In this document: positions 5,955 to 42,384 of the stretch, one piece after another
Position numbering within the stretch: the stretch's first letter is position 1
Layout of the letters: the number at the start of each line of letters is the position of its first letter
Sequence record: NC_100327.1
Source of the DNA: a phage
Reading direction: 5' to 3' (one strand)
Length of the DNA stretch: 64,000 nucleotides
Translations under genes and position numbers: made by a program
The notes under the pieces: model-generated
Database searches by the model: none
What the model was told of the DNA's origin: nothing
Seen by the model: the letters and a program-made list of their open reading frames with translations, nothing else

Positions 5955-6194
5955 TTAGTAGTGACGTGGTTTACAATGGCCCCCAGGAGTACCATCACTA
6001 CGCACACCACAAGAAAAATTATCTCTGTCGTTGTTCGATCCATTGTTATAAAATTCCTCAAGATCAGGCTTGAAAATAAAGCGTTCGTTATTGAATCCAT
6101 CACGCCAGGCGGCTGGCTTCAAATCTTCACTAAAGGGATTAATTAACGTGGCATTATTTAAACGGTTGGCCCACATATTTTCTATTCCTCTCAA
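5955..6194 (-). CDS. hypothetical protein (79 aa)
   Basis: ORF-track ORF; same-strand tiling. Confidence 0.4.
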   Translation of the reverse strand: MRGIENMWANRLNNATLINPFSEDLKPAAWRDGFNNERFIFKPDLEEFYNNGSNNDRDNFSCGVRSDGTPGGHCKPRHY

Positions 6195-6525
6195 ATAGGC
6201 GATCCGCCTCAGTTAAACATATCTCATGGGCTTGATCTCTGGTTTTAGCCTCATCGAAAACTTGTTGTGCCAGGCTGCAGCGTAGGGAGACTGGAAGATC
6301 ACTATAATAGGCGTTGACAAACGTTTGAGCGTCGTACAGGTCTGAAAATACTTTACCCTTTCTATTATTCCCCTTGTCAACAATTGCAAGGATAACAAGT
6401 ACAATAGTTGCAACCACCCCCAGGAAAATAGATATAATAAACCATAAAAAGGCGGATCTACCCATCTTGCCAGCGATCCAGGCGTTGAACAAGGCAACTA
6501 CTACAGCCAAAATAATAAATTCCAT
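6154..6525 (-). CDS. membrane protein with two N-terminal transmembrane helices; start ATG at 6525 (MEFIILAVVV...)
   Basis: RBS AAAGAGG before the ATG at 6525; hydrophobic stretches EFIILAVVVALFNAWIA and FLWFIISIFLGVVATIVLVILAIV. Confidence 0.5.
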   Translation of the reverse strand: MEFIILAVVVALFNAWIAGKMGRSAFLWFIISIFLGVVATIVLVILAIVDKGNNRKGKVFSDLYDAQTFVNAYYSDLPVSLRCSLAQQVFDEAKTRDQAHEICLTEADRLFERNRKYVGQPFK

Positions 6526-6589
6526 TCTATGTACCTCTTTTGCAGTTCTGTTTAACAATAAGGCGGCAAATATGCCGCCTGTTACCTGA

Positions 6590-6970
6590 TTAAAAATTAT
6601 CGCCGTAAATCTTTCCGCTTTCTGCCCACACCACCACGCGGGGCATGTTATCCCATACGTCTTGTTTTAGATTGAGCGCGTGCAATTCTTCGGTGGTGCC
6701 CATACCGGGCACGGGCTGATTGTATACTGCAAAACGACCACCCGCATAGTCATAGGCCAGGGTTAAATCACACTGGATCATCTTTTTGATCATGGCGTTG
6801 AGCATAGCGTTAGCCGCATACTGGTCACGTTTTAGGGGCAACTCTTTGATTAGTTTGCGATAGTTTTCAATGTGATCGCACACTGTTTCACGTGGAAGAT
6901 CTTTCATATCTTCACGGAATGTAACCAGGTTAAACATAACGGTGTCAATAGCCTTGGTAGTGTTTTTCAT
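6590..6970 (-). CDS. hypothetical protein (126 aa)
   Basis: ORF-track ORF; promoter at 7024-7051 and 5' hairpin at 6995-7014. Confidence 0.5.
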   Translation of the reverse strand: MKNTTKAIDTVMFNLVTFREDMKDLPRETVCDHIENYRKLIKELPLKRDQYAANAMLNAMIKKMIQCDLTLAYDYAGGRFAVYNQPVPGMGTTEELHALNLKQDVWDNMPRVVVWAESGKIYGDNF

Positions 6971-7023
6971 AATGTTTTCCTCTTTGTTTTGTGTGGGGCA
7001 AACGTCTTGCCCCCTTGAGTTTT

Positions 7024-7051
7024 AATATAGCAGGTTTTTAGGTTATTGCAA
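7024..7051 (-). promoter_or_regulatory. sigma70-type promoter (TTGCAA, 16 bp, TATATT)
   Basis: Read on the minus strand; transcript would start just before the hairpin ggggcaaacgtcttgcccc. Confidence 0.4.
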
Positions 7052-7059
7052 CACTTTAT

Positions 7060-7683
7060 TTATGAAAAAGTCATCTCGCCATATTCATCCACATCAAACC
7101 GCCAATCATTGGCCTCAATAAGGCCGATCAGGTTTTCGGTAGTAAACTGTTCAAGATAGGCCTCCTCCAGGTCTACGTAAACCTTGCGGGATAGCTCCCG
7201 TACCGTCTCGGTGATCAGCTCTTCCAGGTCTTCCACTTTGTTTTCTTGTTTGGCGGTCAGATCTAGCCAGGCGGTATCAATGTATCCGCTTACAGTGTTT
7301 TCGTGACTATAGCGGCTATATGGATCACGCTCAACACTGGCTGATAACTCGCCATCGTGCATTGTGCCGAACAAGTGACGAATTGATCGGAACTTGGTCA
7401 GGGCCCTTACTTTACGCAAAAATTTTTCTAAATCCACGTTTTCAGCACTGATTGACGCGCCGTCACCCTGGCACCAAAAGCCTGACCAATGTACTTCGGT
7501 ATCTTCAAGGCCATACTCTGGAAAAACATATTCTTTATAGTATTCAATTACACTTTCTGCAAAAAAGTTATCCCCGCTGTGTTCTTCTCTTTCGCGGACC
7601 ATTTCAACGGCTTTTTCTTTTTGTTCGTCGGTCAGCACGTCGAAAGATAAATTGTAACCTGCGGTAATGTTAACGGTGGTCAT
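7060..7683 (-). CDS. hypothetical protein (207 aa)
   Basis: ORF-track ORF; RBS AGGAGAAAATATC before the ATG; promoter and 5' hairpin upstream. Confidence 0.55.
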   Translation of the reverse strand: MTTVNITAGYNLSFDVLTDEQKEKAVEMVREREEHSGDNFFAESVIEYYKEYVFPEYGLEDTEVHWSGFWCQGDGASISAENVDLEKFLRKVRALTKFRSIRHLFGTMHDGELSASVERDPYSRYSHENTVSGYIDTAWLDLTAKQENKVEDLEELITETVRELSRKVYVDLEEAYLEQFTTENLIGLIEANDWRFDVDEYGEMTFS

Positions 7684-7739
7684 GATATTTTCTCCTATTT
7701 TCTTTGTTAGTGGCGGGAAGTTTTCCCGCCTGTGTGTTT

Positions 7740-7767
7740 AAGTATACTTATTGAGGCTTACTTGTCA
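7740..7767 (-). promoter_or_regulatory. sigma70-type promoter (TTGACA, 16 bp, TATACT)
   Basis: Read on the minus strand; followed by 5' hairpin ggcgggaaaacttcccgcc (7712-7730) and RBS. Confidence 0.5.
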
Positions 7768-8018
7768 ACACTATTTTTTAAATTATTGTGGCGTAAAATG
7801 TTTAGAATCTCTTCAACGTCATCAACACGGCGGCAATTTTTAAACGCTACCAATTGCCCCCGGATCTTAATCACTGGGCGGCCTTGCCAGTGCCCCTGGA
7901 GAAAGCGCGCTTTAACTTTATCGGTGGAACTATCACGCCACCAAACGGCCTTATTATTGCAGTAGTAAAAATTATTCAGGACAACATCGACTTTATCAAA
8001 ATTTTTTAATTTACGCAT
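7758..8018 (-). CDS. hypothetical protein (86 aa)
   Basis: ORF-track ORF; RBS AAAGGGG; promoter at 8054-8082. Confidence 0.5.
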   Translation of the reverse strand: MRKLKNFDKVDVVLNNFYYCNNKAVWWRDSSTDKVKARFLQGHWQGRPVIKIRGQLVAFKNCRRVDDVEEILNILRHNNLKNSVDK

Positions 8019-8053
8019 GGCGTTTACCCCTTTCTTCTTGCTTTGATGTGGTT

Positions 8054-8082
8054 AGTATATCCAGGCGATTCCAAGGTGTCAA
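8054..8082 (-). promoter_or_regulatory. sigma70-type promoter (TTGACA, 17 bp, TATACT)
   Basis: Both hexamers read on the minus strand upstream of 7758-8018. Confidence 0.5.
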
Positions 8083-8252
8083 GCTTTAAATAAAAGATAT
8101 TTTTAACACCATAAAACGGTCCTGGGTGATGTTTTCAGGCTAAGAAAGGGGATTGCATAGGTAGGGGCTTTTGTGGCGTTTGTGGTGCCAACCAGGGGCG
8201 CTATTCGTAGGATAGAAATAAAAAGCCCCGCACAATGGCGGGGCGTTGGTTG

Positions 8253-10764: not shown

Positions 10765-10962
10765 TTATTTTTTATTAAACCAGTGGTTGATCTGTCCTTT
10801 TGTCAGGGCGCAACGATTAAGCTGTTGCCGGGTATAGCTCTGACCGCGACGGAATTTATAAAGGCCTTGCCCGTTGTTGATGGTTACGTCCACCTGGCAA
10901 ACCATTTGATCGGTGACCACCTGGCGAGTGTTGCGACGTACTTTGATCCCGTATGCGTTCAT
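10765..10962 (-). CDS. hypothetical basic protein; start ATG at 10962 (MNAYGIKVRR...)
   Basis: RBS AAAGAGGA before the ATG; the track start lies inside promoter 11013-11040, so the true start is downstream. Confidence 0.45.
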   Translation of the reverse strand: MNAYGIKVRRNTRQVVTDQMVCQVDVTINNGQGLYKFRRGQSYTRQQLNRCALTKGQINHWFNKK

Positions 10963-11012
10963 AAATTTATCCTCTTTACTGGTTAGTGCGGTGTTGTTCA
11001 CCTTGTAGGGTA

Positions 11013-11040
11013 ATAATACCATGATTAACCTTGTTGTCAA
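11013..11040 (-). promoter_or_regulatory. sigma70-type promoter (TTGACA, 16 bp, TATTAT)
   Basis: Read on the minus strand upstream of 10765-10962. Confidence 0.5.
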
Positions 11041-11339
11041 CGATTATTTTAAATTATTTTTATGATAGAATCCACCTGCCGCCCCCGCCAGGTTAACCAC
11101 CATTTTTTCGTACTCTTCTTTATGTTCCCGCGCTTCTGTATCATTAATCACTACATTTCCAGGTGAGTAGCATTACCTTTCATTTTTGTACCTCCTCTTC
11201 AATTGTTTACCCTACAGCATGGGCCTACCAGGTTTGCAAGATTTCACCCTCTCCCACCTGGTCAGTTAGGTCCTGCCAGGCTGGCCCCGCCAGGTTGCAG
11301 CGGTTAGCGCATCAGGTTAGAAAAATTTTTTGAAAAGTG

Positions 11340-11368
11340 TTGACAGCGGCCCCGACAGGTGGCACAAT
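11340..11368 (+). promoter_or_regulatory. sigma70-type promoter (TTGACA, 17 bp, CACAAT) reading into the non-coding region
   Basis: Plus-strand hexamers; GC-rich element copy B begins about 15 nt downstream. Confidence 0.4.
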
Positions 11369-35047: not shown

Positions 35048-36232
35048 TTAAGCTTTAGCCAAAATGGCGCTAAACTCTTCACCAAACTCTTTTACAATCT
35101 TCATCAGGTTTGGGTATGCTTTGATCAGCTGAGCAACAATCTTGTCACGCCCTTTACCGATAAGCAAGGCATTTCCTAAGGCATTAGGTTTCATCATCGC
35201 CATAAAGACTGAGAATACAAAATCTCGGTTCTCGTCCTTGAAGTTTTCCCAAAGGAAATCGAGGAAGTTTGCCACACAGCTGACAAGATCTTCGTCTGAG
35301 ATACTTGCATTTTCCATCATATTACGAATAGCGATACAACCTTCAGATCCAAGAATCCACAAAATGTCTGGCTGCTTAGGACCTACGTATTCTTTGCAGC
35401 CACCTGCCATAATCCGACCGATTTCCGGTAAATTGCGTTTCTTGGTGTGGTATGTCCAGATCTCTACCGCTGCAGTGTGACCAATAGCACCTTGCAGAAG
35501 AACACGGGCCATAGCGTCAGAAATAATACCGCTGTCAAAATCGTGCAAGATGTCAGATGCAGCAACCCAAGATCGTGGTGTGGCAAAAGATGGACAATTA
35601 ATCTCAGCCATAGCCTCATAATTATCAATAGCTGATGGAACTCTTTTCAGATACCCAATTACAGAGGAGTGAACCCCGTTGAGGAATGCGTAGTCCTCAA
35701 TAAACACCTCTGCATTGCTTGTAACCTCTACAATGATAAAACGGTTAGCCAGAGGGGCTTCGAGCGCCGAAAGAACCGCACCATCTGTAGAACGGTTACC
35801 CGCAGCCACAAAAACAGAACCCTTAGGGAATGCATAGGTGCCGCACTTGTGGTCAAGCATAATTTGCATTGCAACCTTTTGCAGGTAGTTATCTGCATGA
35901 GTGAGCTCATCCAGAAAGATAATTCCGCTCCAGTCAGGATCCGCAGGCCAAAATTCTGGAATTGCAAACACTGTACGTGTAGTTCCATCCGCTTCTACAG
36001 GGATAGGTAGCCCAGATAAGTCGGCAGGATCTTTATCTGACAGTCGCACGTCAACAAGGTTGTCATCTCGCTCACCGAACATATTATCAGCGATCTGCTT
36101 CATCACCTGGCTTTTACCCACACCCATTGGTCCCAAAATTAGGACAGATCGGCTATGACGTTGGGCAAACTGAATAATAGCTGGCAACTCACGGACAGTG
36201 ATTTGACCACTTTCGAATACGTTTCTTGACAT
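35048..36232 (-). CDS. AAA+ ATPase, MoxR/CbbQ-like
   Basis: Walker A VLILGPMGVGKSQ; Walker B IIFLDELTHA. Confidence 0.7.
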   Translation of the reverse strand: MSRNVFESGQITVRELPAIIQFAQRHSRSVLILGPMGVGKSQVMKQIADNMFGERDDNLVDVRLSDKDPADLSGLPIPVEADGTTRTVFAIPEFWPADPDWSGIIFLDELTHADNYLQKVAMQIMLDHKCGTYAFPKGSVFVAAGNRSTDGAVLSALEAPLANRFIIVEVTSNAEVFIEDYAFLNGVHSSVIGYLKRVPSAIDNYEAMAEINCPSFATPRSWVAASDILHDFDSGIISDAMARVLLQGAIGHTAAVEIWTYHTKKRNLPEIGRIMAGGCKEYVGPKQPDILWILGSEGCIAIRNMMENASISDEDLVSCVANFLDFLWENFKDENRDFVFSVFMAMMKPNALGNALLIGKGRDKIVAQLIKAYPNLMKIVKEFGEEFSAILAKA

Positions 36233-36501
36233 TAGTAAAAGTCCTCTACTTGTGTGTAAGTGTTTTCAAAGTTTTCCAAAACAGATATCACATCGAATCT
36301 GTCAATATCATACGTGACTCTCCAGTTGTACGCAACCCTTTCTGCTGTTGCCTCTTCTGGCGCTAGTCGTCTGCTGGCATAAAAGAGTGTTGGAGTACAC
36401 TTTCTTGCTTGCCCTCTAACTTTCCCATAATAATATCTGTGAATATCTTTGTCAAAATTTAACTCTTTTTCTGCACGAAGTTCATATTGCTGGTATAACA
36501 T
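36232..36501 (-). CDS. hypothetical protein (89 aa)
   Basis: ORF-track ORF. Confidence 0.45.
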   Translation of the reverse strand: MLYQQYELRAEKELNFDKDIHRYYYGKVRGQARKCTPTLFYASRRLAPEEATAERVAYNWRVTYDIDRFDVISVLENFENTYTQVEDFY

Positions 36502-36545
36502 CTCTACTACTCCTTAAGCAGCATCCTTGCCGCCATTCCTGCCCA

Positions 36546-36926
36546 CTAAAATGCAGTCCGAATCCAGACAAGGTTCTTATCTGCCCAATCATAGAGGCAA
36601 GTCATTGCACTATTGAATTGCTCACACGGAGGATAATCTTCTTCCATCTGGCGCATAGCAGAGCCTTGTGGGTAAAGCTCCCGTGCTGCAAACCACGCGT
36701 CGTAGTCATCAACGGTGTCGAAGTAGTATACAACATCCTCTAACTCAGGATCGAACTTTGAACTATCAGGATCCAGTTGTTCAGGGAACTTGGAGCGTAA
36801 CTTGCCAGCCACAATACTTGCCAACTCGCTAACATGCTTATTGTCCCACTCCACTAGCTTCCCATCTTCAGTGATGCGTCCTAACCACTGATCATGAAGG
36901 TCAACTGTTGTCTTCCACTGAGCCAT
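36546..36926 (-). CDS. hypothetical protein (126 aa)
   Basis: ORF-track ORF. Confidence 0.45.
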   Translation of the reverse strand: MAQWKTTVDLHDQWLGRITEDGKLVEWDNKHVSELASIVAGKLRSKFPEQLDPDSSKFDPELEDVVYYFDTVDDYDAWFAARELYPQGSAMRQMEEDYPPCEQFNSAMTCLYDWADKNLVWIRTAF

Positions 36927-36928
36927 TA

Positions 36929-37186
36929 TCAGTCCACCTCTTCTTCTCGTTGTAGTTCAAGATACCCGTAGGTCTGGACATCTTGAAGGGTGTGGAACTC
37001 CCCCTCTGCCGCTAAGGCACGAACAACTTGGCACAAAACCTTATGAGGAACTTCATCCAAACCTAGATTCAGTGCAGGAAACACCTTATCTAAGTCAACA
37101 AAATAAACGAACTGTAGCTCACCAGCTTCAAAAGGTGTATCTTCAATAAACATCTTCTCGGCATTAGTCAAGATCTGCACTTTCAT
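36929..37186 (-). CDS. hypothetical protein (85 aa)
   Basis: ORF-track ORF. Confidence 0.45.
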   Translation of the reverse strand: MKVQILTNAEKMFIEDTPFEAGELQFVYFVDLDKVFPALNLGLDEVPHKVLCQVVRALAAEGEFHTLQDVQTYGYLELQREEEVD

Positions 37187-37542
37187 TATTCTACCTCCTC
37201 TTCTTTTTCTTCGGCATTAGTTTCATGGCTACCCCACTCGGGAGTTTCCACCTCGATAGTAAACTCACGCACTACACGGTAATTGCCCATGAAGCGCTCT
37301 ACTTCGTCAAGGCTTATGGAGAGGCCATTGGCAACCAGGTCTGCAGCACCCTCTTCTACCAGGTAGTCCAGATTGGCTTCCAGAGCCTCAGGTTCAAACC
37401 CTGTCAATGCAATCAGATAACCTTCCCCTTCATCAGGGAGGACAATACAGCCCAATTGATTTTCTTTAAAAAGGCAGTGACCATCATTATTGATTGGGTG
37501 TTCATTGCAGTAAATAGCTGCACGATAAGTAACTTTAGACAT
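37186..37542 (-). CDS. hypothetical acidic protein; start ATG at 37542 (MSKVTYRA...) inside a 29-bp inverted repeat
   Basis: RBS TAAGGAG lies 9 nt before the ATG; the first 8 codons sit within repeat 37519-37547. Confidence 0.45.
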   Translation of the reverse strand: MSKVTYRAAIYCNEHPINNDGHCLFKENQLGCIVLPDEGEGYLIALTGFEPEALEANLDYLVEEGAADLVANGLSISLDEVERFMGNYRVVREFTIEVETPEWGSHETNAEEKEEEVE

Positions 37543-37547
37543 CGGTA
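37519..37547. repeat. 29-bp perfect inverted repeat, left copy
   Basis: Reverse complement of 39381-39409 (taccgatgtctaaagttacttatcgtgca); flanking bases differ. Confidence 0.7.
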
Positions 37548-37555
37548 AGGTCTCC

Positions 37556-37834
37556 TTAGGCAATTGTCATTTTACATTCTTGAAATTTTAACACAAGACG
37601 GTGATTGTGTCTAGTGTCTAAAAAGATTTTTTCAACCATCAGGCACACGGTATAACCGTCCATCTTGTTGACAACAAAATCTCCAGGATGAGGGAGGATG
37701 TCTCCCGGATTGGGGAAACATAGTCCACTCAGAAAGGCATCGTCAGTGGTGGACTTAATAGATTTCCACACACTGTCTGCCTGAACATGTTCACCGACGT
37801 AATATACATTACCACATGCCTTCATCATAGTCAA
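37556..37834 (-). CDS. hypothetical protein (92 aa)
   Basis: ORF-track ORF. Confidence 0.4.
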   Translation of the reverse strand: MTMMKACGNVYYVGEHVQADSVWKSIKSTTDDAFLSGLCFPNPGDILPHPGDFVVNKMDGYTVCLMVEKIFLDTRHNHRLVLKFQECKMTIA

Positions 37835-38730
37835 ACCCTCGCATAAATTAAACTTGTATCAGTATACTTCTTTAATGGGTAAATATCCTGTCCATAGATG
37901 CAATCATTAAACACCTCATCTACCCAAAGGCTACACTTATATCCCATCATTTCTAAAACACCCATCTCTTCTTCGGTAAACTTATCACCGCTCTTGCAAG
38001 ATGTCAATACCTCATTCTGAACTCTTGCTACCTCGAAGCGGTTATTGGCAATATCGCTATTGGCGATCAAATACTCACCTAGAGGGTGTGCGGCATTAAA
38101 GATGCACAGTGGACGGCTGACGTAATAGTCTCCAGGTGTATAAAAATTGTTGAGGTCTTTCACTAGAACATTCTTATCAGTCACTTCATTTATAACATCA
38201 TGCATATCGCACATCTTTATATGTTTGAGGATTCCATCCCCCATCACAAAATAAAAACTTGCTGAAACACTTTCGGCATAGATCTTACTAGATCCGTTGT
38301 AGTTGTATTTTACTCGGATGCTAACGGGGGTTTTTCCTGTCGCGTTAGCCATCATCCAAAGAAATGGCAGCTCATACTTCTCCTCTGAGGAAACAAAAGG
38401 TGAGGTAGCCAGAGATCGAAAACCTCCAGAGAAGTTGAAAGTTACAGAACCGCTCCGGCGGTATGATACCGCGTATTCTACTTTTATATCGACATACCCA
38501 TTGGAATAGGTGTGTCCTTCATTATCTAAATATGTCCACTTATCAGACCCAGATACCAATCTACGCTCAATAACCTTCATCACTATAGGAATTAATGGGT
38601 TGGTACAAACCGCTTTTGAAGTAGCTTTATCATCTAAAGCCTCGTAAATTGCAGAAAGGATGTCCCCAGCTGAAAGATTGGTTGTTATGTCCTGTTTCCA
38701 CCGCGTACTAAAACTGTTAAGATTTGCCAT
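37831..38730 (-). CDS. hypothetical protein (299 aa) in an AT-rich segment
   Basis: ORF-track ORF; RBS AGGAG; own promoter at 38771-38799. Confidence 0.5.
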   Translation of the reverse strand: MANLNSFSTRWKQDITTNLSAGDILSAIYEALDDKATSKAVCTNPLIPIVMKVIERRLVSGSDKWTYLDNEGHTYSNGYVDIKVEYAVSYRRSGSVTFNFSGGFRSLATSPFVSSEEKYELPFLWMMANATGKTPVSIRVKYNYNGSSKIYAESVSASFYFVMGDGILKHIKMCDMHDVINEVTDKNVLVKDLNNFYTPGDYYVSRPLCIFNAAHPLGEYLIANSDIANNRFEVARVQNEVLTSCKSGDKFTEEEMGVLEMMGYKCSLWVDEVFNDCIYGQDIYPLKKYTDTSLIYARV

Positions 38731-38770
38731 AAGTAAGTGCTCCTATGTTAGTTTTCTTTCGAATGGGTGC

Positions 38771-38799
38771 ACTATATTGTGGAGTTAGAGTAAAGTCAA
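38771..38799 (-). promoter_or_regulatory. sigma70-type promoter (TTGACT, 17 bp, TATAGT), divergent partner
   Basis: Read on the minus strand upstream of 37831-38730. Confidence 0.5.
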
Positions 38800-38812
38800 C
38801 ACGTTTTTGATG

Positions 38813-38841
38813 TTGACATCTGTTGAGACAATTGATAAGAT
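38813..38841 (+). promoter_or_regulatory. sigma70-type promoter (TTGACA, 17 bp, TAAGAT) for the plus-strand accessory block
   Basis: Plus-strand hexamers back-to-back with the minus-strand promoter. Confidence 0.45.
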
Positions 38842-38872
38842 TTCTTCACTTACAGAGCACGAGAGACGACTC

Positions 38873-39850
38873 ATGAATCTTGAAAAATATTATACACCAG
38901 AAGAGTTAGAGCGCTTGCTCAAAAAATATAGACGCAAACAGAATAACGCACGGAAACGAGATATAGAGTTCGACCTGTCATGGGAAGAATACCTCCTATT
39001 TGGTAAAAAACTTTTAGGAGATGGAGTATGCGACTATACCCTTATACCTTTTGACATGCACACAGATGAAAACGGGCTGGGGAATCCTTTCTACCCATCC
39101 CTGGAGCGGATAGATGATGAAGGTCCTTATGCGGTTGATAACTGTTGTGTGGTGGGATTGAGATGCAACTCTCTAAAGGACTGTCTGGTAGATAAAAAGA
39201 CTGCAGTCTTGATTAAAGACGAAACTGATCGAAAAATTGTCCAGCAGATGATGCTCCACCTGAGCGAAGAGCGTATGGAGAAATTGAAAGGTGATTATAC
39301 TTTTGAAGATTTCATCTTGCAATATGGAACGGAAGAGGATAAACTAGCACTCTTTGACGAAGAAGAGGAGGAAGATATGCTACCGATGTCTAAAGTTACT
39401 TATCGTGCACCCAAGAAGCACATTTCCGACATTGTAAACGAGCCTATCACAGAAGAGATTGAAGAAATGACGCAACAGGTGCATGAAGAGGAAAAAGAGA
39501 CTCAGGAGGTCGAAGAGGAGCTTACAGAAGAGGTTCCTGCACTACCTGATGATGTTGAGATTGCCAAAGCTTACACTTTCTATTGTCAAACGTTCTACGA
39601 TGTAGGTATGAAAGTTGATCTGTCGTTCAGCCAATTTAAGAGTTCGTATATTCGCAAATGCTGTGCTTTAACTGGTGAACGTCTTGGAGCTGGACTTAAA
39701 CCCCTGTTGGTGACCGACTGGAATAAAGGTTTCACTAAAGGAAACTTTATGGTAGTATCTCCGATTATGGAGAAAGCTATGACAGATCTTATGAAGACCA
39801 CCCGCATGACAATGACCGAGTTGGCAGGTATTTTCAAACACGTTAAATAA
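38873..39850 (+). CDS. hypothetical protein; the track ORF starts at 38807 but the ATG at 38873 is more likely
   Basis: The track N-terminus overlaps promoter hexamers; Cys cluster C..CC..C in the N-terminal half; internal MSKVTYRA coincides with the inverted repeat. Confidence 0.45.
   Translation: MNLEKYYTPEELERLLKKYRRKQNNARKRDIEFDLSWEEYLLFGKKLLGDGVCDYTLIPFDMHTDENGLGNPFYPSLERIDDEGPYAVDNCCVVGLRCNSLKDCLVDKKTAVLIKDETDRKIVQQMMLHLSEERMEKLKGDYTFEDFILQYGTEEDKLALFDEEEEEDMLPMSKVTYRAPKKHISDIVNEPITEEIEEMTQQVHEEEKETQEVEEELTEEVPALPDDVEIAKAYTFYCQTFYDVGMKVDLSFSQFKSSYIRKCCALTGERLGAGLKPLLVTDWNKGFTKGNFMVVSPIMEKAMTDLMKTTRMTMTELAGIFKHVK
39381..39409. repeat. 29-bp perfect inverted repeat, right copy
   Basis: Exact reverse complement of 37519-37547. 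Confidence 0.7.
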
Positions 39851-39862
39851 TGACAGGGGCCA

Positions 39863-41344
39863 ATGGCCCCTTCTGGAGTTTTAATGGATAGCAGAAGTTC
39901 AGAAATCATTGCCTCGCAGAAAGATGATGCCCTGAGAATGTTGCAGGCTGCACGTATGTATCTCCTTGAAAAGCTGCCGTTTTATGGCACACTACTGTCA
40001 GGGTTGCAGTTCGTAGAAAACCACACATGGTGCTCCACCATGGCAACCGACCATAAACGCATCTATTACAGTCCTGAGTTCATTATGGGATTGGCTGATG
40101 AACGCAAGGCTATTCTTAAGGCTTCTCTAACTGACGAGCAGTTTGAGATGGCTGAAGTTTTCTATTCCCCAAAATCTGTGAAAGAGGTGGCCTTCCTTCT
40201 GTCACATGAGGTGGGGCATATTATCTGTGATCACCTAGTCCGTGGTAAAAGCTTTGAGCCGGAACTGTTCAATATTGCTTGTGATCACGTTATCAACACA
40301 GGCCTTGTGGTTGACTTTAGCAAACCTCCTTGTGTTTTCTTCCCGAAGGGGAAAAGCACTACGTTCCTGAAAGGTAAGCCTTTTGGCTTCTTAGCCAGCT
40401 GCTACTGCGACATGAAGTTTCATGGATGGATTGCTGAGAACGTTTATGCAGTTCTTGATAAGCAAAGAGATCAGAATAACGGTAAAAGTAAGAACGGTAA
40501 AGGTGAGAACTCTCAAAGTGATAAGCGACAAACCGATGATCGCATGAGTGGGAACGGTGGCACCAGTGATAATCTTGGAAAGGCTATGGGGTATGATCAG
40601 CCACAACCTGTAATCAGCCAATCTGATAAAGATCAGGCCATGCAGGACTCTGGTGATATGCTGGAGGCAGCAATGCAAGCGTCCGGAGGCCGTTGCCCTG
40701 AGGCGGTGCGTGAGTTTGTCAAGAACAGAGGTAAGCCTGTAATCAACTATATAGACATCATTAAGCAACGTATGTTGTCTAAAAGAAAGGCCGAACTGAC
40801 CTACAGAAAACCTGGTCGCCGATCTGGGTCTTTGACCAGCACAATGCGAAAAGTTGGGGCTATAAACAAGAACCAGCACGTTATTGTTCCTGGTCGTAAT
40901 CCGGAAAACACTATAGATATTGTGGTGGCTTTAGACGTTTCTGGCTCGATCTCTCAAAGAACTTTAAAGAAAATGTTCAATGAAATCACCGGATTGTGCA
41001 ATCTGTATAAAGAGTTTAAGGTTACAATGTTCTGTTGGTCAACTGAGGTTGGAGAGGTTAAAGTATACACTCGCGGCAACATAGACGAGATGGTCAACTA
41101 TGAGGTCCACTCAACATGGGGCACAACAGCTGCTTGCGTGTTCGAGTATCTGGATGCCAACATACCTAATGCAAAAGATGTCATCGTCCTGACCGACCTA
41201 TACTTTGAGCATAACTTTGAACAAAAGGTTGTTGACAACAAGTGGAAAAAGTACGATACTCTATGGGTCCTCACTGAGGGGTATAATAAAAATTATATCC
41301 CGAGCTTTGGGAAAACTGTGGAATTAATCGAGTACGCTAAGTAA
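39863..41344 (+). CDS. putative zinc metallopeptidase (HExxH) with C-terminal von Willebrand factor A domain
   Basis: HEVGH in the N-terminal half; MIDAS-like DVSGSIS in the C-terminal half. Confidence 0.6.
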   Translation: MAPSGVLMDSRSSEIIASQKDDALRMLQAARMYLLEKLPFYGTLLSGLQFVENHTWCSTMATDHKRIYYSPEFIMGLADERKAILKASLTDEQFEMAEVFYSPKSVKEVAFLLSHEVGHIICDHLVRGKSFEPELFNIACDHVINTGLVVDFSKPPCVFFPKGKSTTFLKGKPFGFLASCYCDMKFHGWIAENVYAVLDKQRDQNNGKSKNGKGENSQSDKRQTDDRMSGNGGTSDNLGKAMGYDQPQPVISQSDKDQAMQDSGDMLEAAMQASGGRCPEAVREFVKNRGKPVINYIDIIKQRMLSKRKAELTYRKPGRRSGSLTSTMRKVGAINKNQHVIVPGRNPENTIDIVVALDVSGSISQRTLKKMFNEITGLCNLYKEFKVTMFCWSTEVGEVKVYTRGNIDEMVNYEVHSTWGTTAACVFEYLDANIPNAKDVIVLTDLYFEHNFEQKVVDNKWKKYDTLWVLTEGYNKNYIPSFGKTVELIEYAK

Positions 41345-41359
41345 GAGAGGAGGTTATTT

Positions 41360-41623
41360 ATGGCAACAGAGTTAAAATTTGCATCAAACCGTAAAACTAA
41401 GAAGTATCTGTCCTCAGTAGCTCCAGGCACTGTGGTGATGTTTGTTGATGAACTTGGGGATGTGAATACAGCACTTGTTGTAAAATCACATCCTGCAAAC
41501 ATATATGTTGGGGTATTTGACCTGTTCAGAAAGGTGTTTGTAGAACTGCCTCACAGTTTGGTTGTTACAGAAATGGATGCCTGCATAGAAATTCTTGGCG
41601 AAGTTATGGTGGAGGAACAATAA
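41360..41623 (+). CDS. small protein (87 aa), tandem paralog 1 of 4
   Basis: Aligns with the next gene (MAT..F.S..K.KK....GTVV....FDL....VTE.D..I.ILGE); stop/start overlap TAATG. Confidence 0.5.
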   Translation: MATELKFASNRKTKKYLSSVAPGTVVMFVDELGDVNTALVVKSHPANIYVGVFDLFRKVFVELPHSLVVTEMDACIEILGEVMVEEQ

Positions 41624-41886
41624 TGGCTACCAGCATTGTATTCAATTCTAAGGTGAAGAACAAAAAGCGTGCAGACAGTTTTCCGTGTGGGACCGTGGTA
41701 AGTTGCGACGGAGACGGCATTCAAAACATAGTTATGATTGTCAAAACAGGAGAACATTGTGTGTGGGGGTTCGATTTAGAAAATAATGAGTTGTACGATC
41801 TGCCGCCAAACATGAAAGTTACAGAGCTTGACACCAAAATTACCATCCTTGGAGAGACAAGCTATTCAAAAGAAGGAGGAGAATAA
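41623..41886 (+). CDS. small protein (87 aa), tandem paralog 2 of 4
   Basis: Same length and conserved blocks as paralog 1; translationally coupled. Confidence 0.5.
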   Translation: MATSIVFNSKVKNKKRADSFPCGTVVSCDGDGIQNIVMIVKTGEHCVWGFDLENNELYDLPPNMKVTELDTKITILGETSYSKEGGE

Positions 41887-42149
41887 TGACCACAAAAATC
41901 ACTATCGCAGAACCGAAAGCTAACACTCAGCCTATCGAAAAGTTTAAGTGCGGTGAGGTGGTAACATTCACACCAGATAATGAAGATGCTAAGATTTTCG
42001 CAATGGTCACAGCTGAGTGGATGTGTGACAACACCACACAGGTTCTGCGTTTTGACACCTATCTTACCGATGAAATCAGGAACGACAAGATTGTGACTGG
42101 TGTGGATACTGAGATTGTTTTCTACAAGAGCTTTTTAGAGGGTTTCTGA
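41886..42149 (+). CDS. small protein (87 aa), tandem paralog 3 of 4 (more divergent)
   Basis: Same length; CGEVV block; coupled start. Confidence 0.45.
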   Translation: MTTKITIAEPKANTQPIEKFKCGEVVTFTPDNEDAKIFAMVTAEWMCDNTTQVLRFDTYLTDEIRNDKIVTGVDTEIVFYKSFLEGF

Positions 42150-42150
42150 T

Positions 42151-42384
42151 ATGGCAAAAATTAGAAAATTATCTAGCAATCAGGTTGTGAAAGACTTCGA
42201 ATCTGGAGAGATTCTTTATGTTCGTGATGCAGATGACGAAGGTGAAGATCTCGTTATGTTGGTGGGGCACGCTGAGGACGGATGCATCCAAGCTGTTTTT
42301 CTTGAAACAGCTATGGTGCACTGGATAGAGCTGGACCTGAAAGCACGAAAACCTAAAGCAGAAATCCTGATTTACGAAGATTAA
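42151..42384 (+). CDS. small acidic protein (77 aa), probable divergent paralog 4
   Basis: Similar size and GEIL/LVMLV blocks; adjacent. Confidence 0.4.
   Translation: MAKIRKLSSNQVVKDFESGEILYVRDADDEGEDLVMLVGHAEDGCIQAVFLETAMVHWIELDLKARKPKAEILIYED

Follow-up and report, generated by a model that had tools for sequence, protein, structure and literature searches.

A MoxR-class ATPase and a metallopeptidase-vWA protein encoded apart in rV5-like phages: a known gene pair split by an inversion, with a probable accessory role in infection

The 64,000-nucleotide stretch of phage DNA analysed here (sequence record NC_100327.1; hereafter 'the window') carries two genes, one for a MoxR-class AAA+ ATPase and one for a protein that combines an HExxH metallopeptidase-like domain with a von Willebrand factor A (vWA) domain, which lie 3.6 kb apart on opposite strands and are transcribed divergently. 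We consider it somewhat probable (about 60%) that these are two subunits of one MoxR/vWA module, split by an inversion, which serves the phage as a non-essential, ATP-driven accessory, including in counter-defence. The pair is a known module, already annotated and partly characterised, and its anomalous gene order has an ordinary cause, namely the inversion. The two genes are the following.

35048-36232, minus strand: MoxR-class AAA+ ATPase, 394 amino acids (open reading frame; phrog_1297 'ATPase', 2e-110; motifs; model)
39884-41344, plus strand: HExxH metallopeptidase-like (DUF2201_N) and vWA (DUF2201) protein, 486 amino acids (Pfam, conserved columns, model)

An earlier, sequence-only reading of the window had placed the ATPase gene exactly where it is found, and the distance and opposite strands that it gave are correct. 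It had also put the second open reading frame at 39863-41344. That frame is indeed present on the plus strand and open from 39863, but the ATG at this position sits within a GC hairpin (39856-39872), and the start is likely at 39884 because GenBank annotates it there and the ATG follows a GGAG ribosome-binding site. Seven genes, rather than the six small ones claimed, separate the pair: six on the minus strand (85-299 amino acids), followed by one plus-strand, Srd-like gene of 325 amino acids. Escherichia phage nimi is 100% identical over a 6.8-kb stretch around the pair, and the window belongs to the genus Vequintavirus (rV5-like). The same layout recurs in 121 phage records (rV5-like, Vequintavirus) at no less than 90% nucleotide identity, in 114 of which 80% or more of the query lies within a single match. 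GenBank depositors have labelled the first gene 'MoxR ATPase' or 'ATPase' and the second 'putative metallopeptidase' or 'VWA-like domain containing protein'.

The ATPase possesses a Walker A motif (GPMGVGKS), a Walker B motif (IIFLDE), a sensor-1 asparagine (N146), an arginine finger (LANRF, R164) and a sensor-2 arginine (TPRSW, R220), all of which are invariant in alignments of 13 and of 78 homologues; the LANRF finger and the TPRSW sensor 2 are typical of MoxR proteins. Homologues at 31-38% identity carry AAA_3/AAA_5 domains (precomputed PF07726/PF07728), and a homologue from an Aliarcobacter chromosome scores above the cut-offs for both (AAA_5 33.9, AAA_3 27.2). AAA_3 is the MoxR family proper. 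A family profile search against the PDB returned the AAA domains of Midasin as its best match. The AlphaFold model (mean predicted local distance difference test score, pLDDT, 85.9) was compared with solved structures using Foldseek, and the 17 best PDB matches were all NorQ and CbbQ2 (E 3e-8 to 2e-6, target-normalised TM-score 0.59-0.65). As modelled, the protein has a beta-hairpin at residues 75-90 between beta2 and beta3, short strands at about 129-135 before beta4 and a C-terminal helical extension of some 125 residues past the AAA+ core, and its predicted fold, with the helix-2 insert and the pre-sensor-1 hairpin, is closest to solved MoxR-class structures. The label 'MoxR-like' given by the sequence-only reading is thus justified at class level, since AAA_3/AAA_5 homologues, the Midasin profile match and the NorQ/CbbQ fold matches all bear it out despite sub-threshold Pfam scores for the protein itself. 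We regard the ATPase as a divergent member of the MoxR class with an extra C-terminal helical region. Sequence searches of the PDB and NCBIfam gave P-loop-level matches only (ClpB, ClpC, p97), which are uninformative as to subfamily and were not accepted as pointing to a Clp-like unfoldase; no NCBIfam match up to the cut-off was obtained.

In the second protein, an N-terminal peptidase-like domain is followed by a C-terminal vWA domain, the Pfam scan returning DUF2201_N (PF13203; 99.1 bits, cut-off 23.2, 4e-28) and the VWA-like DUF2201 (PF09967; 44.2 bits, cut-off 26.4, 2.5e-11). The HEVGH motif occupies residues 108-112, and both of its histidines, H108 and H112, are invariant in 13 homologues and at least 90% conserved in 28; H117, R120, N130 and D134 are also invariant or nearly so in these two alignments. 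[quoted passage not shown] In the AlphaFold model (pLDDT 80.6), the N-terminal domain is helical, residues 200-228 form a disordered linker, and the C-terminal domain is of alpha/beta type and matches vWA folds, including that of NorD, in fold searches. The N-terminal domain is a putative peptidase.

Some existing labels for this gene and its family differ from the above. It appears as 'HNH endonuclease' or 'anti-sigma factor' in RefSeq and GenBank (NC_041871, NC_024134, nimi_141), mislabels for which Pfam gives no HNH support, and the PHROG families 1314 and 3118 are themselves labelled 'HNH endonuclease'. Neither the two proteins nor the genes around them gave meaningful matches in a PADLOC scan, so the pair does not belong to a catalogued defence system.

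Wherever the two families were sampled outside the rV5 relatives, the pair is as a rule encoded side by side, as the sequence-only reading had stated. Among 80 IMG/VR loci fetched from an alignment of the ATPase, 68 contain both genes, and in 66 of these the DUF2201 gene lies directly downstream of the ATPase gene on the same strand (gap 9-563 bp); the rule is broken twice, by the rV5-like contig itself and by a locus with a 3.6-kb same-strand insertion. Among the 12 loci without a DUF2201 match, ten stop no more than about 220 bp from the ATPase gene, and one further locus has only about 1.1 kb downstream. A parallel sample of 80 bacterial genome loci, mostly from Campylobacterota, yielded 75 informative ones (the other five have no partner because the contig ends): the genes are adjacent in 65, separated by a same-strand insertion of 0.9-5.6 kb in eight, and in two the partner is missing despite sufficient room. 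The Aliarcobacter locus mentioned above (5974-8149) embeds the pair among housekeeping genes (pseudouridine synthase, GreA, methyltransferase), which means that the module is also cellular and not restricted to phages; the cellular operon version was seen in about 70 other Campylobacterota loci as well. Adjacency likewise holds in metagenomic relatives at 37-39% identity and in the N4-like phage IME11, where the annotated gap is 7 nucleotides. In N4 itself, the corresponding genes gp24 and gp25 number among the 14 genes that make up the core of N4-like phages and belong to the middle transcripts (PMC4193335). On a 578-kb JGI phage contig (1592-8591), the pair resides amid HSP20, ClpS and ClpP genes, i.e. 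in a proteostasis neighbourhood.

On a larger scale, a tblastn search of GenBank phages recovered the ATPase from 812 records and the DUF2201 protein from 614, the hosts of the two sets being distributed in much the same way. Both genes are present in every related genus examined, and the lack of co-occurrence that the earlier reading had named as refuting its idea was thus not observed. An opposite-strand layout was encountered in no sampled lineage beyond the rV5 relatives. The omics paper on phage PA5oct makes no mention of the pair.

How the two genes came to be separated can be read from related Vequintavirinae, and this explanation is the new part of the present analysis. In the Certrevirus CR3 and the Acinetobacter phage ABPH49, an HD-phosphohydrolase gene, small genes, the ATPase gene and the DUF2201 gene follow one another on one strand. 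Escherichia phage A5-4 is arranged likewise, except that a gene for an HNH homing endonuclease is inserted between the pair (10868-11362 of the fetched locus); the junction of this insertion is the same as the inversion breakpoint junction of the rV5 clade. The split layout is found in Seunavirus (SSE121, LNA4), Henunavirus (Hena1), Mydovirus (BIS47) and Vequintavirus, and consists of one arm running leftwards from the HD gene to the ATPase gene, a divergent gap, and a second arm running rightwards through the Srd-like gene and, where present, a small gene to the DUF2201 gene. Pairwise protein synteny between CR3 and SSE121 shows that the left flank (phosphatase) and the right flank (from DUF2201 onward) are unchanged in order and strand and that only the block from HD to ATPase is reversed; the comparison of ABPH49 with SSE121 gives the same picture, and in SSE121, Hena1, BIS47 and the window alike, the flanks are unchanged and this block alone is flipped. 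The split layout is explained by one inversion, of which one breakpoint lies between the ATPase and DUF2201 genes, and the separation of the pair is secondary. The second breakpoint is close to the divergent promoter or to the Srd-like gene and cannot be placed precisely. Across these lineages the divergence of the two proteins tracks, with identities to the window's ATPase and DUF2201 protein, respectively, of 50 and 45% in SSE121, 43 and 43% in Hena1, 35 and 33% in CR3, and 34 and 36% in ABPH49; the intervening genes are not conserved.

As for function, genetic data are available in the literature for the vequintavirus Bas54 (MaxBurger), which was subjected to the genome-wide transposon study HIDEN-SEQ (preprint 10.1101/2025.11.20.689424). 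The ATPase of the window is identical to bas54_0063 of this phage at 394 of 394 positions; the peptidase-vWA protein corresponds to bas54_0055. On K-12, both genes of Bas54 are non-essential, with insertions at 60 of 64 TA sites in bas54_0063 and at 81 of 86 in bas54_0055, and all genes between them are non-essential too (10.1101/2025.11.20.689424). On the clinical uropathogenic strain CFE311, insertions in bas54_0063 were strongly depleted (log2 fold change -7.23, q = 0) and those in bas54_0055 more weakly (log2 fold change -2.20, p = 0.0009, q = 0.009), with bas54_0056-0062, bas54_0053/0054 and bas54_0064-0067 unaffected (10.1101/2025.11.20.689424). A polar effect behind the depletion of bas54_0055 can be rejected, as insertions in the upstream bas54_0056 and the downstream bas54_0053/0054 are not depleted. 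These values come from supplementary sheets in which CFE303 and CFE311 are one identical table, the command line in the first sheet naming the 311 sample. The depletion of bas54_0055 on CFE311 is contained in the published supplement and unmentioned in the text of the preprint, and is a small added point of our analysis.

A clean knockout of bas54_0063 and a knockout of bas54_0140 are both sensitive to DS-28 (10.1101/2025.11.20.689424). DS-28 is described in the literature as a two-gene, plasmid-associated DefenseFinder system. By this published phenotype, and given a protein 100% identical to bas54_0063, the ATPase of the window is needed to overcome DS-28. The bas54_0140 gene is located at 96210-96509 of the MaxBurger genome (MZ501093), about 39 kb from the ATPase gene; no homologue of it was found within the window, and its estimated position is just beyond the window's start. 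Taken together, the genetic data support a host-specific, accessory role of the ATPase in counter-defence, would fit a weaker or partial contribution of the peptidase-vWA protein without proving it, and argue against an essential role in assembly, given that both genes are dispensable on K-12 and the phenotype is host-specific.

The region between the two genes contains the features below.

36232-38730, minus strand: six genes upstream of the ATPase gene and in the same direction, of 89, 126, 85, 118, 90 and 299 amino acids (open reading frames, family scans)
36427-36455, minus strand: candidate promoter TTGACA-17-TATTAT, 11/12, the best sigma-70-like match of the region (consensus match)
38731-38872, no strand: putative divergent control region of about 140 bp with back-to-back sigma-70-like promoters (consensus scan)
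38799-38771, minus strand: candidate promoter TTGACT-17-TATAGT (consensus match)
38813-38841, plus strand: candidate promoter TTGACA-17-TAAGAT with an upstream TG (consensus match)
38873-39850, plus strand: Srd-like 'anti-sigma factor' gene (phrog_3118), 325 amino acids, first of the plus-strand arm (family scan, annotations)
39856-39872, plus strand: GC-rich palindromic hairpin AGGGGCCAATGGCCCCT, between the Srd-like and peptidase-vWA genes

No Pfam domains were found in the six minus-strand genes, and only the 126-amino-acid one has a Seunavirus homologue. Several records call the 299-amino-acid gene (37831-38730) a 'putative alpha 1-3 fucosyltransferase', a label that appears unsupported because neither Pfam nor NCBIfam matches the protein and its PHROG is one of unknown function. 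The Srd-like gene sits directly upstream of the peptidase-vWA gene, and its position upstream of DUF2201 is kept in SSE121, Hena1 and BIS47. Of the divergent promoter region that the sequence-only reading had proposed, back-to-back promoter-like matches are present, and since both genes of the pair face away from this one region, their co-regulation is plausible. The candidate promoter at 36427-36455, inside the 89-amino-acid gene and about 190 nucleotides upstream of the ATPase start, could provide the ATPase gene with a promoter of its own. The hairpin at 39856-39872, which is annotated as a terminator in the record of phage Murica, may act as an attenuator or stabiliser. Past the peptidase-vWA gene, at 41360-42384, follow three tandem genes of 264 nucleotides (87 amino acids each) and a fourth of 77 amino acids, which look like paralogues; two of them share one VOG in the annotation of nimi.

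An inverted repeat between the two genes, to which the earlier reading had drawn attention, is real, as a perfect repeat of 29 nucleotides (37519-37547 and 39381-39409) of which 0 copies are expected by chance, but it has no demonstrable link to the split. It encodes the peptide PMSKVTYRA twice, at the start of the 118-amino-acid minus-strand gene and within the acidic linker of the Srd-like product. Nimi and Murica have two perfect arms; MaxBurger, whose linker is unrelated in sequence there, and one IMG/VR relative lack the Srd-like arm, and no such repeat occurs in Seunavirus, Henunavirus or Mydovirus. The idea that the repeat mediated or marks the inversion was rejected on these grounds: it is confined to the Murica/nimi lineage, lacks one arm in MaxBurger and in the IMG/VR relative, matches a short patch in the variable linker of the Srd-like protein and is absent from the other split genera. 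The repeat appears to be an ectopic patch, specific to that lineage, within a variable acidic linker.

How might such a module work? Under our favoured reading, the ancestral state would have been a two-gene operon, ATPase then peptidase-vWA, in which a single inversion took place before Vequintavirus, Seunavirus, Henunavirus and Mydovirus diverged from their common ancestor, with a breakpoint exactly between the pair. The central block ending in the ATPase gene would thereby have been flipped, which would place the two genes in different arms flanking one divergent promoter region, both still transcribed outward. At the protein level, CbbO binds its substrate via its vWA domain with CbbQ as the motor (PMC4660213), and a 'finger' of the NorD vWA domain enters the NorQ pore, the MIDAS binding the target and not the ATPase (PMC9976466, PMC13036017). 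By analogy with NorQ-NorD and CbbQ-CbbO, the ATPase hexamer would engage the vWA domain of its partner, so that the two proteins would be physically associated in this phage as well; the MIDAS site would dock onto an acidic patch of a target protein, ATP hydrolysis would remodel this target, and the HExxH domain would then cleave it or process it in some other way. This picture of an ATP-driven remodelling and proteolysis device, targeted by the MIDAS, is the most economical one. The components of DS-28 would be the obvious candidates for the target. The module would be non-essential and expressed early or in the middle phase, aiding the infection of particular host strains partly via counter-defence against DS-28.

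A more far-reaching version of this idea, tentative and rather doubtful at present, holds that the widespread N4 gp24/gp25-like module is a general ATP-driven counter-defence machine, in which the MIDAS would capture an immune protein such as a DS-28 component, the MoxR hexamer would remodel it and the HExxH domain would destroy it. If this were true, the Vequintavirus split would represent a natural 'unlinked' version whose two activities can be separated genetically.

Several observations weigh against the idea of one joint module with a counter-defence role. The DS-28 counter-defence genes named in the preprint are bas54_0063 and the unrelated bas54_0140, which encodes 99 amino acids; the peptidase-vWA gene is not named, nor was bas54_0055 among the knockouts tried against DS-28 (10.1101/2025.11.20.689424). 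On CFE311, 27 of the 227 Bas54 genes reached significance, and because the effect on bas54_0055 is much weaker than that on bas54_0063 and about 10% of genes are significant, the co-depletion of the pair amounts to modest support. As promoters, the divergent sites are identified by consensus only, transcript data for the genus Vequintavirus were not found, and the hairpin ahead of the peptidase-vWA gene could uncouple it from the divergent promoter. At the level of single proteins, the ATPase scores 16.7 bits against AAA_5 in Pfam, below the cut-off of 22, with AAA_3 not reported, and a zincin fold of the partner's N-terminal domain is unconfirmed, since both whole-chain fold searches gave vWA matches only, so that the Pfam family and the motif are the basis for assigning a peptidase fold.

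One could accordingly imagine that the two proteins have been functionally independent since the split, with the ATPase alone or together with others, such as the bas54_0140 product, acting as the anti-DS-28 factor and the peptidase-vWA protein working elsewhere. The choice of genes named in the preprint would fit this account, as would the roughly 30-fold difference between the CFE311 effect sizes, the strong promoter-like site of the ATPase gene's own and the C-terminal extension of about 125 amino acids, which could bind other partners. We nevertheless regard such independence as unlikely, for both genes have been kept, with intact catalytic motifs, in every genus of the split clade examined, their divergence tracks across lineages, and bas54_0055 is significantly depleted on CFE311 when the intervening genes are not. 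Moreover, apart from one IMG/VR and two bacterial loci, no lineage was found to keep one gene with a clear loss of the other among loci with enough room to tell.

Other explanations retain the partnership and change its purpose. The pair might be a chaperone for metallo-cofactor insertion or enzyme activation, akin to NorQD, CbbQO and CobST, that matures a metalloenzyme of the phage or the host, e.g. in nucleotide metabolism. NorQ and CbbQ are indeed the closest solved structures, nucleotide-metabolism genes (HD phosphohydrolase, ThyX/ThyA, dCTP deaminase, dUTPase) neighbour the pair in many phages, and the cellular version in Aliarcobacter stands amid housekeeping genes. Yet the nearly invariant HExxH of the adaptor favours hydrolysis over pure remodelling, the module is dispensable on K-12 and required on a strain with a specific defence system, and no conserved candidate client enzyme adjoins it across lineages, all of which make this a quite improbable account. 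A combined virion-assembly chaperone and processing protease would be the remaining alternative. In the Acidianus two-tailed virus, a MoxR-vWA pair is needed for tail development. For the related pair of jumbo phages, a role in virion assembly was proposed by Iyer, Anantharaman, Krishnan, Burroughs and Aravind in 2021 (PMC7824862), and the HSP20, ClpS and ClpP genes around the pair on the 578-kb phage contig would be in keeping with such a task. For the window, however, we deem it highly improbable: both genes are dispensable for Bas54 plaques on K-12 (the 60/64 and 81/86 TA sites hit), they reside among early and middle genes (rIIA/rIIB, the Srd-like gene, nucleotide metabolism) outside the structural module, the N4 homologues are middle transcripts (PMC4193335), and the phenotype varies with the host strain.

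The earlier statement that the function of the pair in phages is poorly understood broadly still holds, with the qualification that the pair was described in 2021 (PMC7824862) and that an identical ATPase has since been reported as an anti-defence factor (10.1101/2025.11.20.689424). This module is among the most widely conserved non-structural gene pairs of large lytic phages, occurring in N4-like (as core genes), rV5-like, jumbo and many marine phages, and neither the inversion nor the weaker depletion of bas54_0055 changes its classification. What remains of interest is the biochemical function of so widespread a module, which a recent preprint has begun to address for exactly this ATPase. 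Going forward, the Vequintavirus copy offers the best entry point, owing to the clean and host-specific DS-28 phenotype of the ATPase, the dispensability on K-12 and the natural separation of the pair, the last of which makes single-gene manipulation easy.

Among the closest known systems is the pair formed by N4 gp24 (AAA ATPase) and gp25 (vWFA) in the Schitoviridae, which tblastn shows to belong to the same two families, one match even being annotated as 'N4 gp24-like'. As in the window, the ATPase comes first, and the context is one of non-structural middle genes near rIIA and nucleotide-metabolism genes; unlike in the window, the N4-like genes are adjacent on one strand, as with the 7-nucleotide gap of IME11, and the proteins are only about 21-28% identical to those of the window, which are longer because the ATPase has its C-terminal extension and the partner carries insertions within its peptidase domain. 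The same architecture is found in the MoxR/metallopeptidase-vWA 'chaperone-cochaperone' pair of group 2.2 jumbo phages (PMC7824862; 23-28% identity by tblastn), from which the Vequintavirus genes differ in being split and in that their genetics point to a dispensable, host-strain-dependent function. The Campylobacterota operons join an AAA_5/AAA_3 ATPase, 33-38% identical to that of the window, to a partner with the same DUF2201_N and DUF2201 domains, adjacent in the 65 of 75 loci noted above; their housekeeping context sets them apart, and so does the shorter length of the proteins (about 335 and 404 amino acids in the one operon, from Aliarcobacter, examined in detail). Finally, NorQ-NorD and CbbQ-CbbO provide the closest solved ATPase folds and share the general layout of the adaptor, in which a disordered linker joins the N-terminal domain to a C-terminal vWA domain bearing a MIDAS. 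The ATPase core is only 15-21% identical to NorQ and CbbQ, and NorD and CbbO, whose clients are NOR (nitric oxide reductase) and Rubisco, differ from the phage adaptor in having no HExxH domain.

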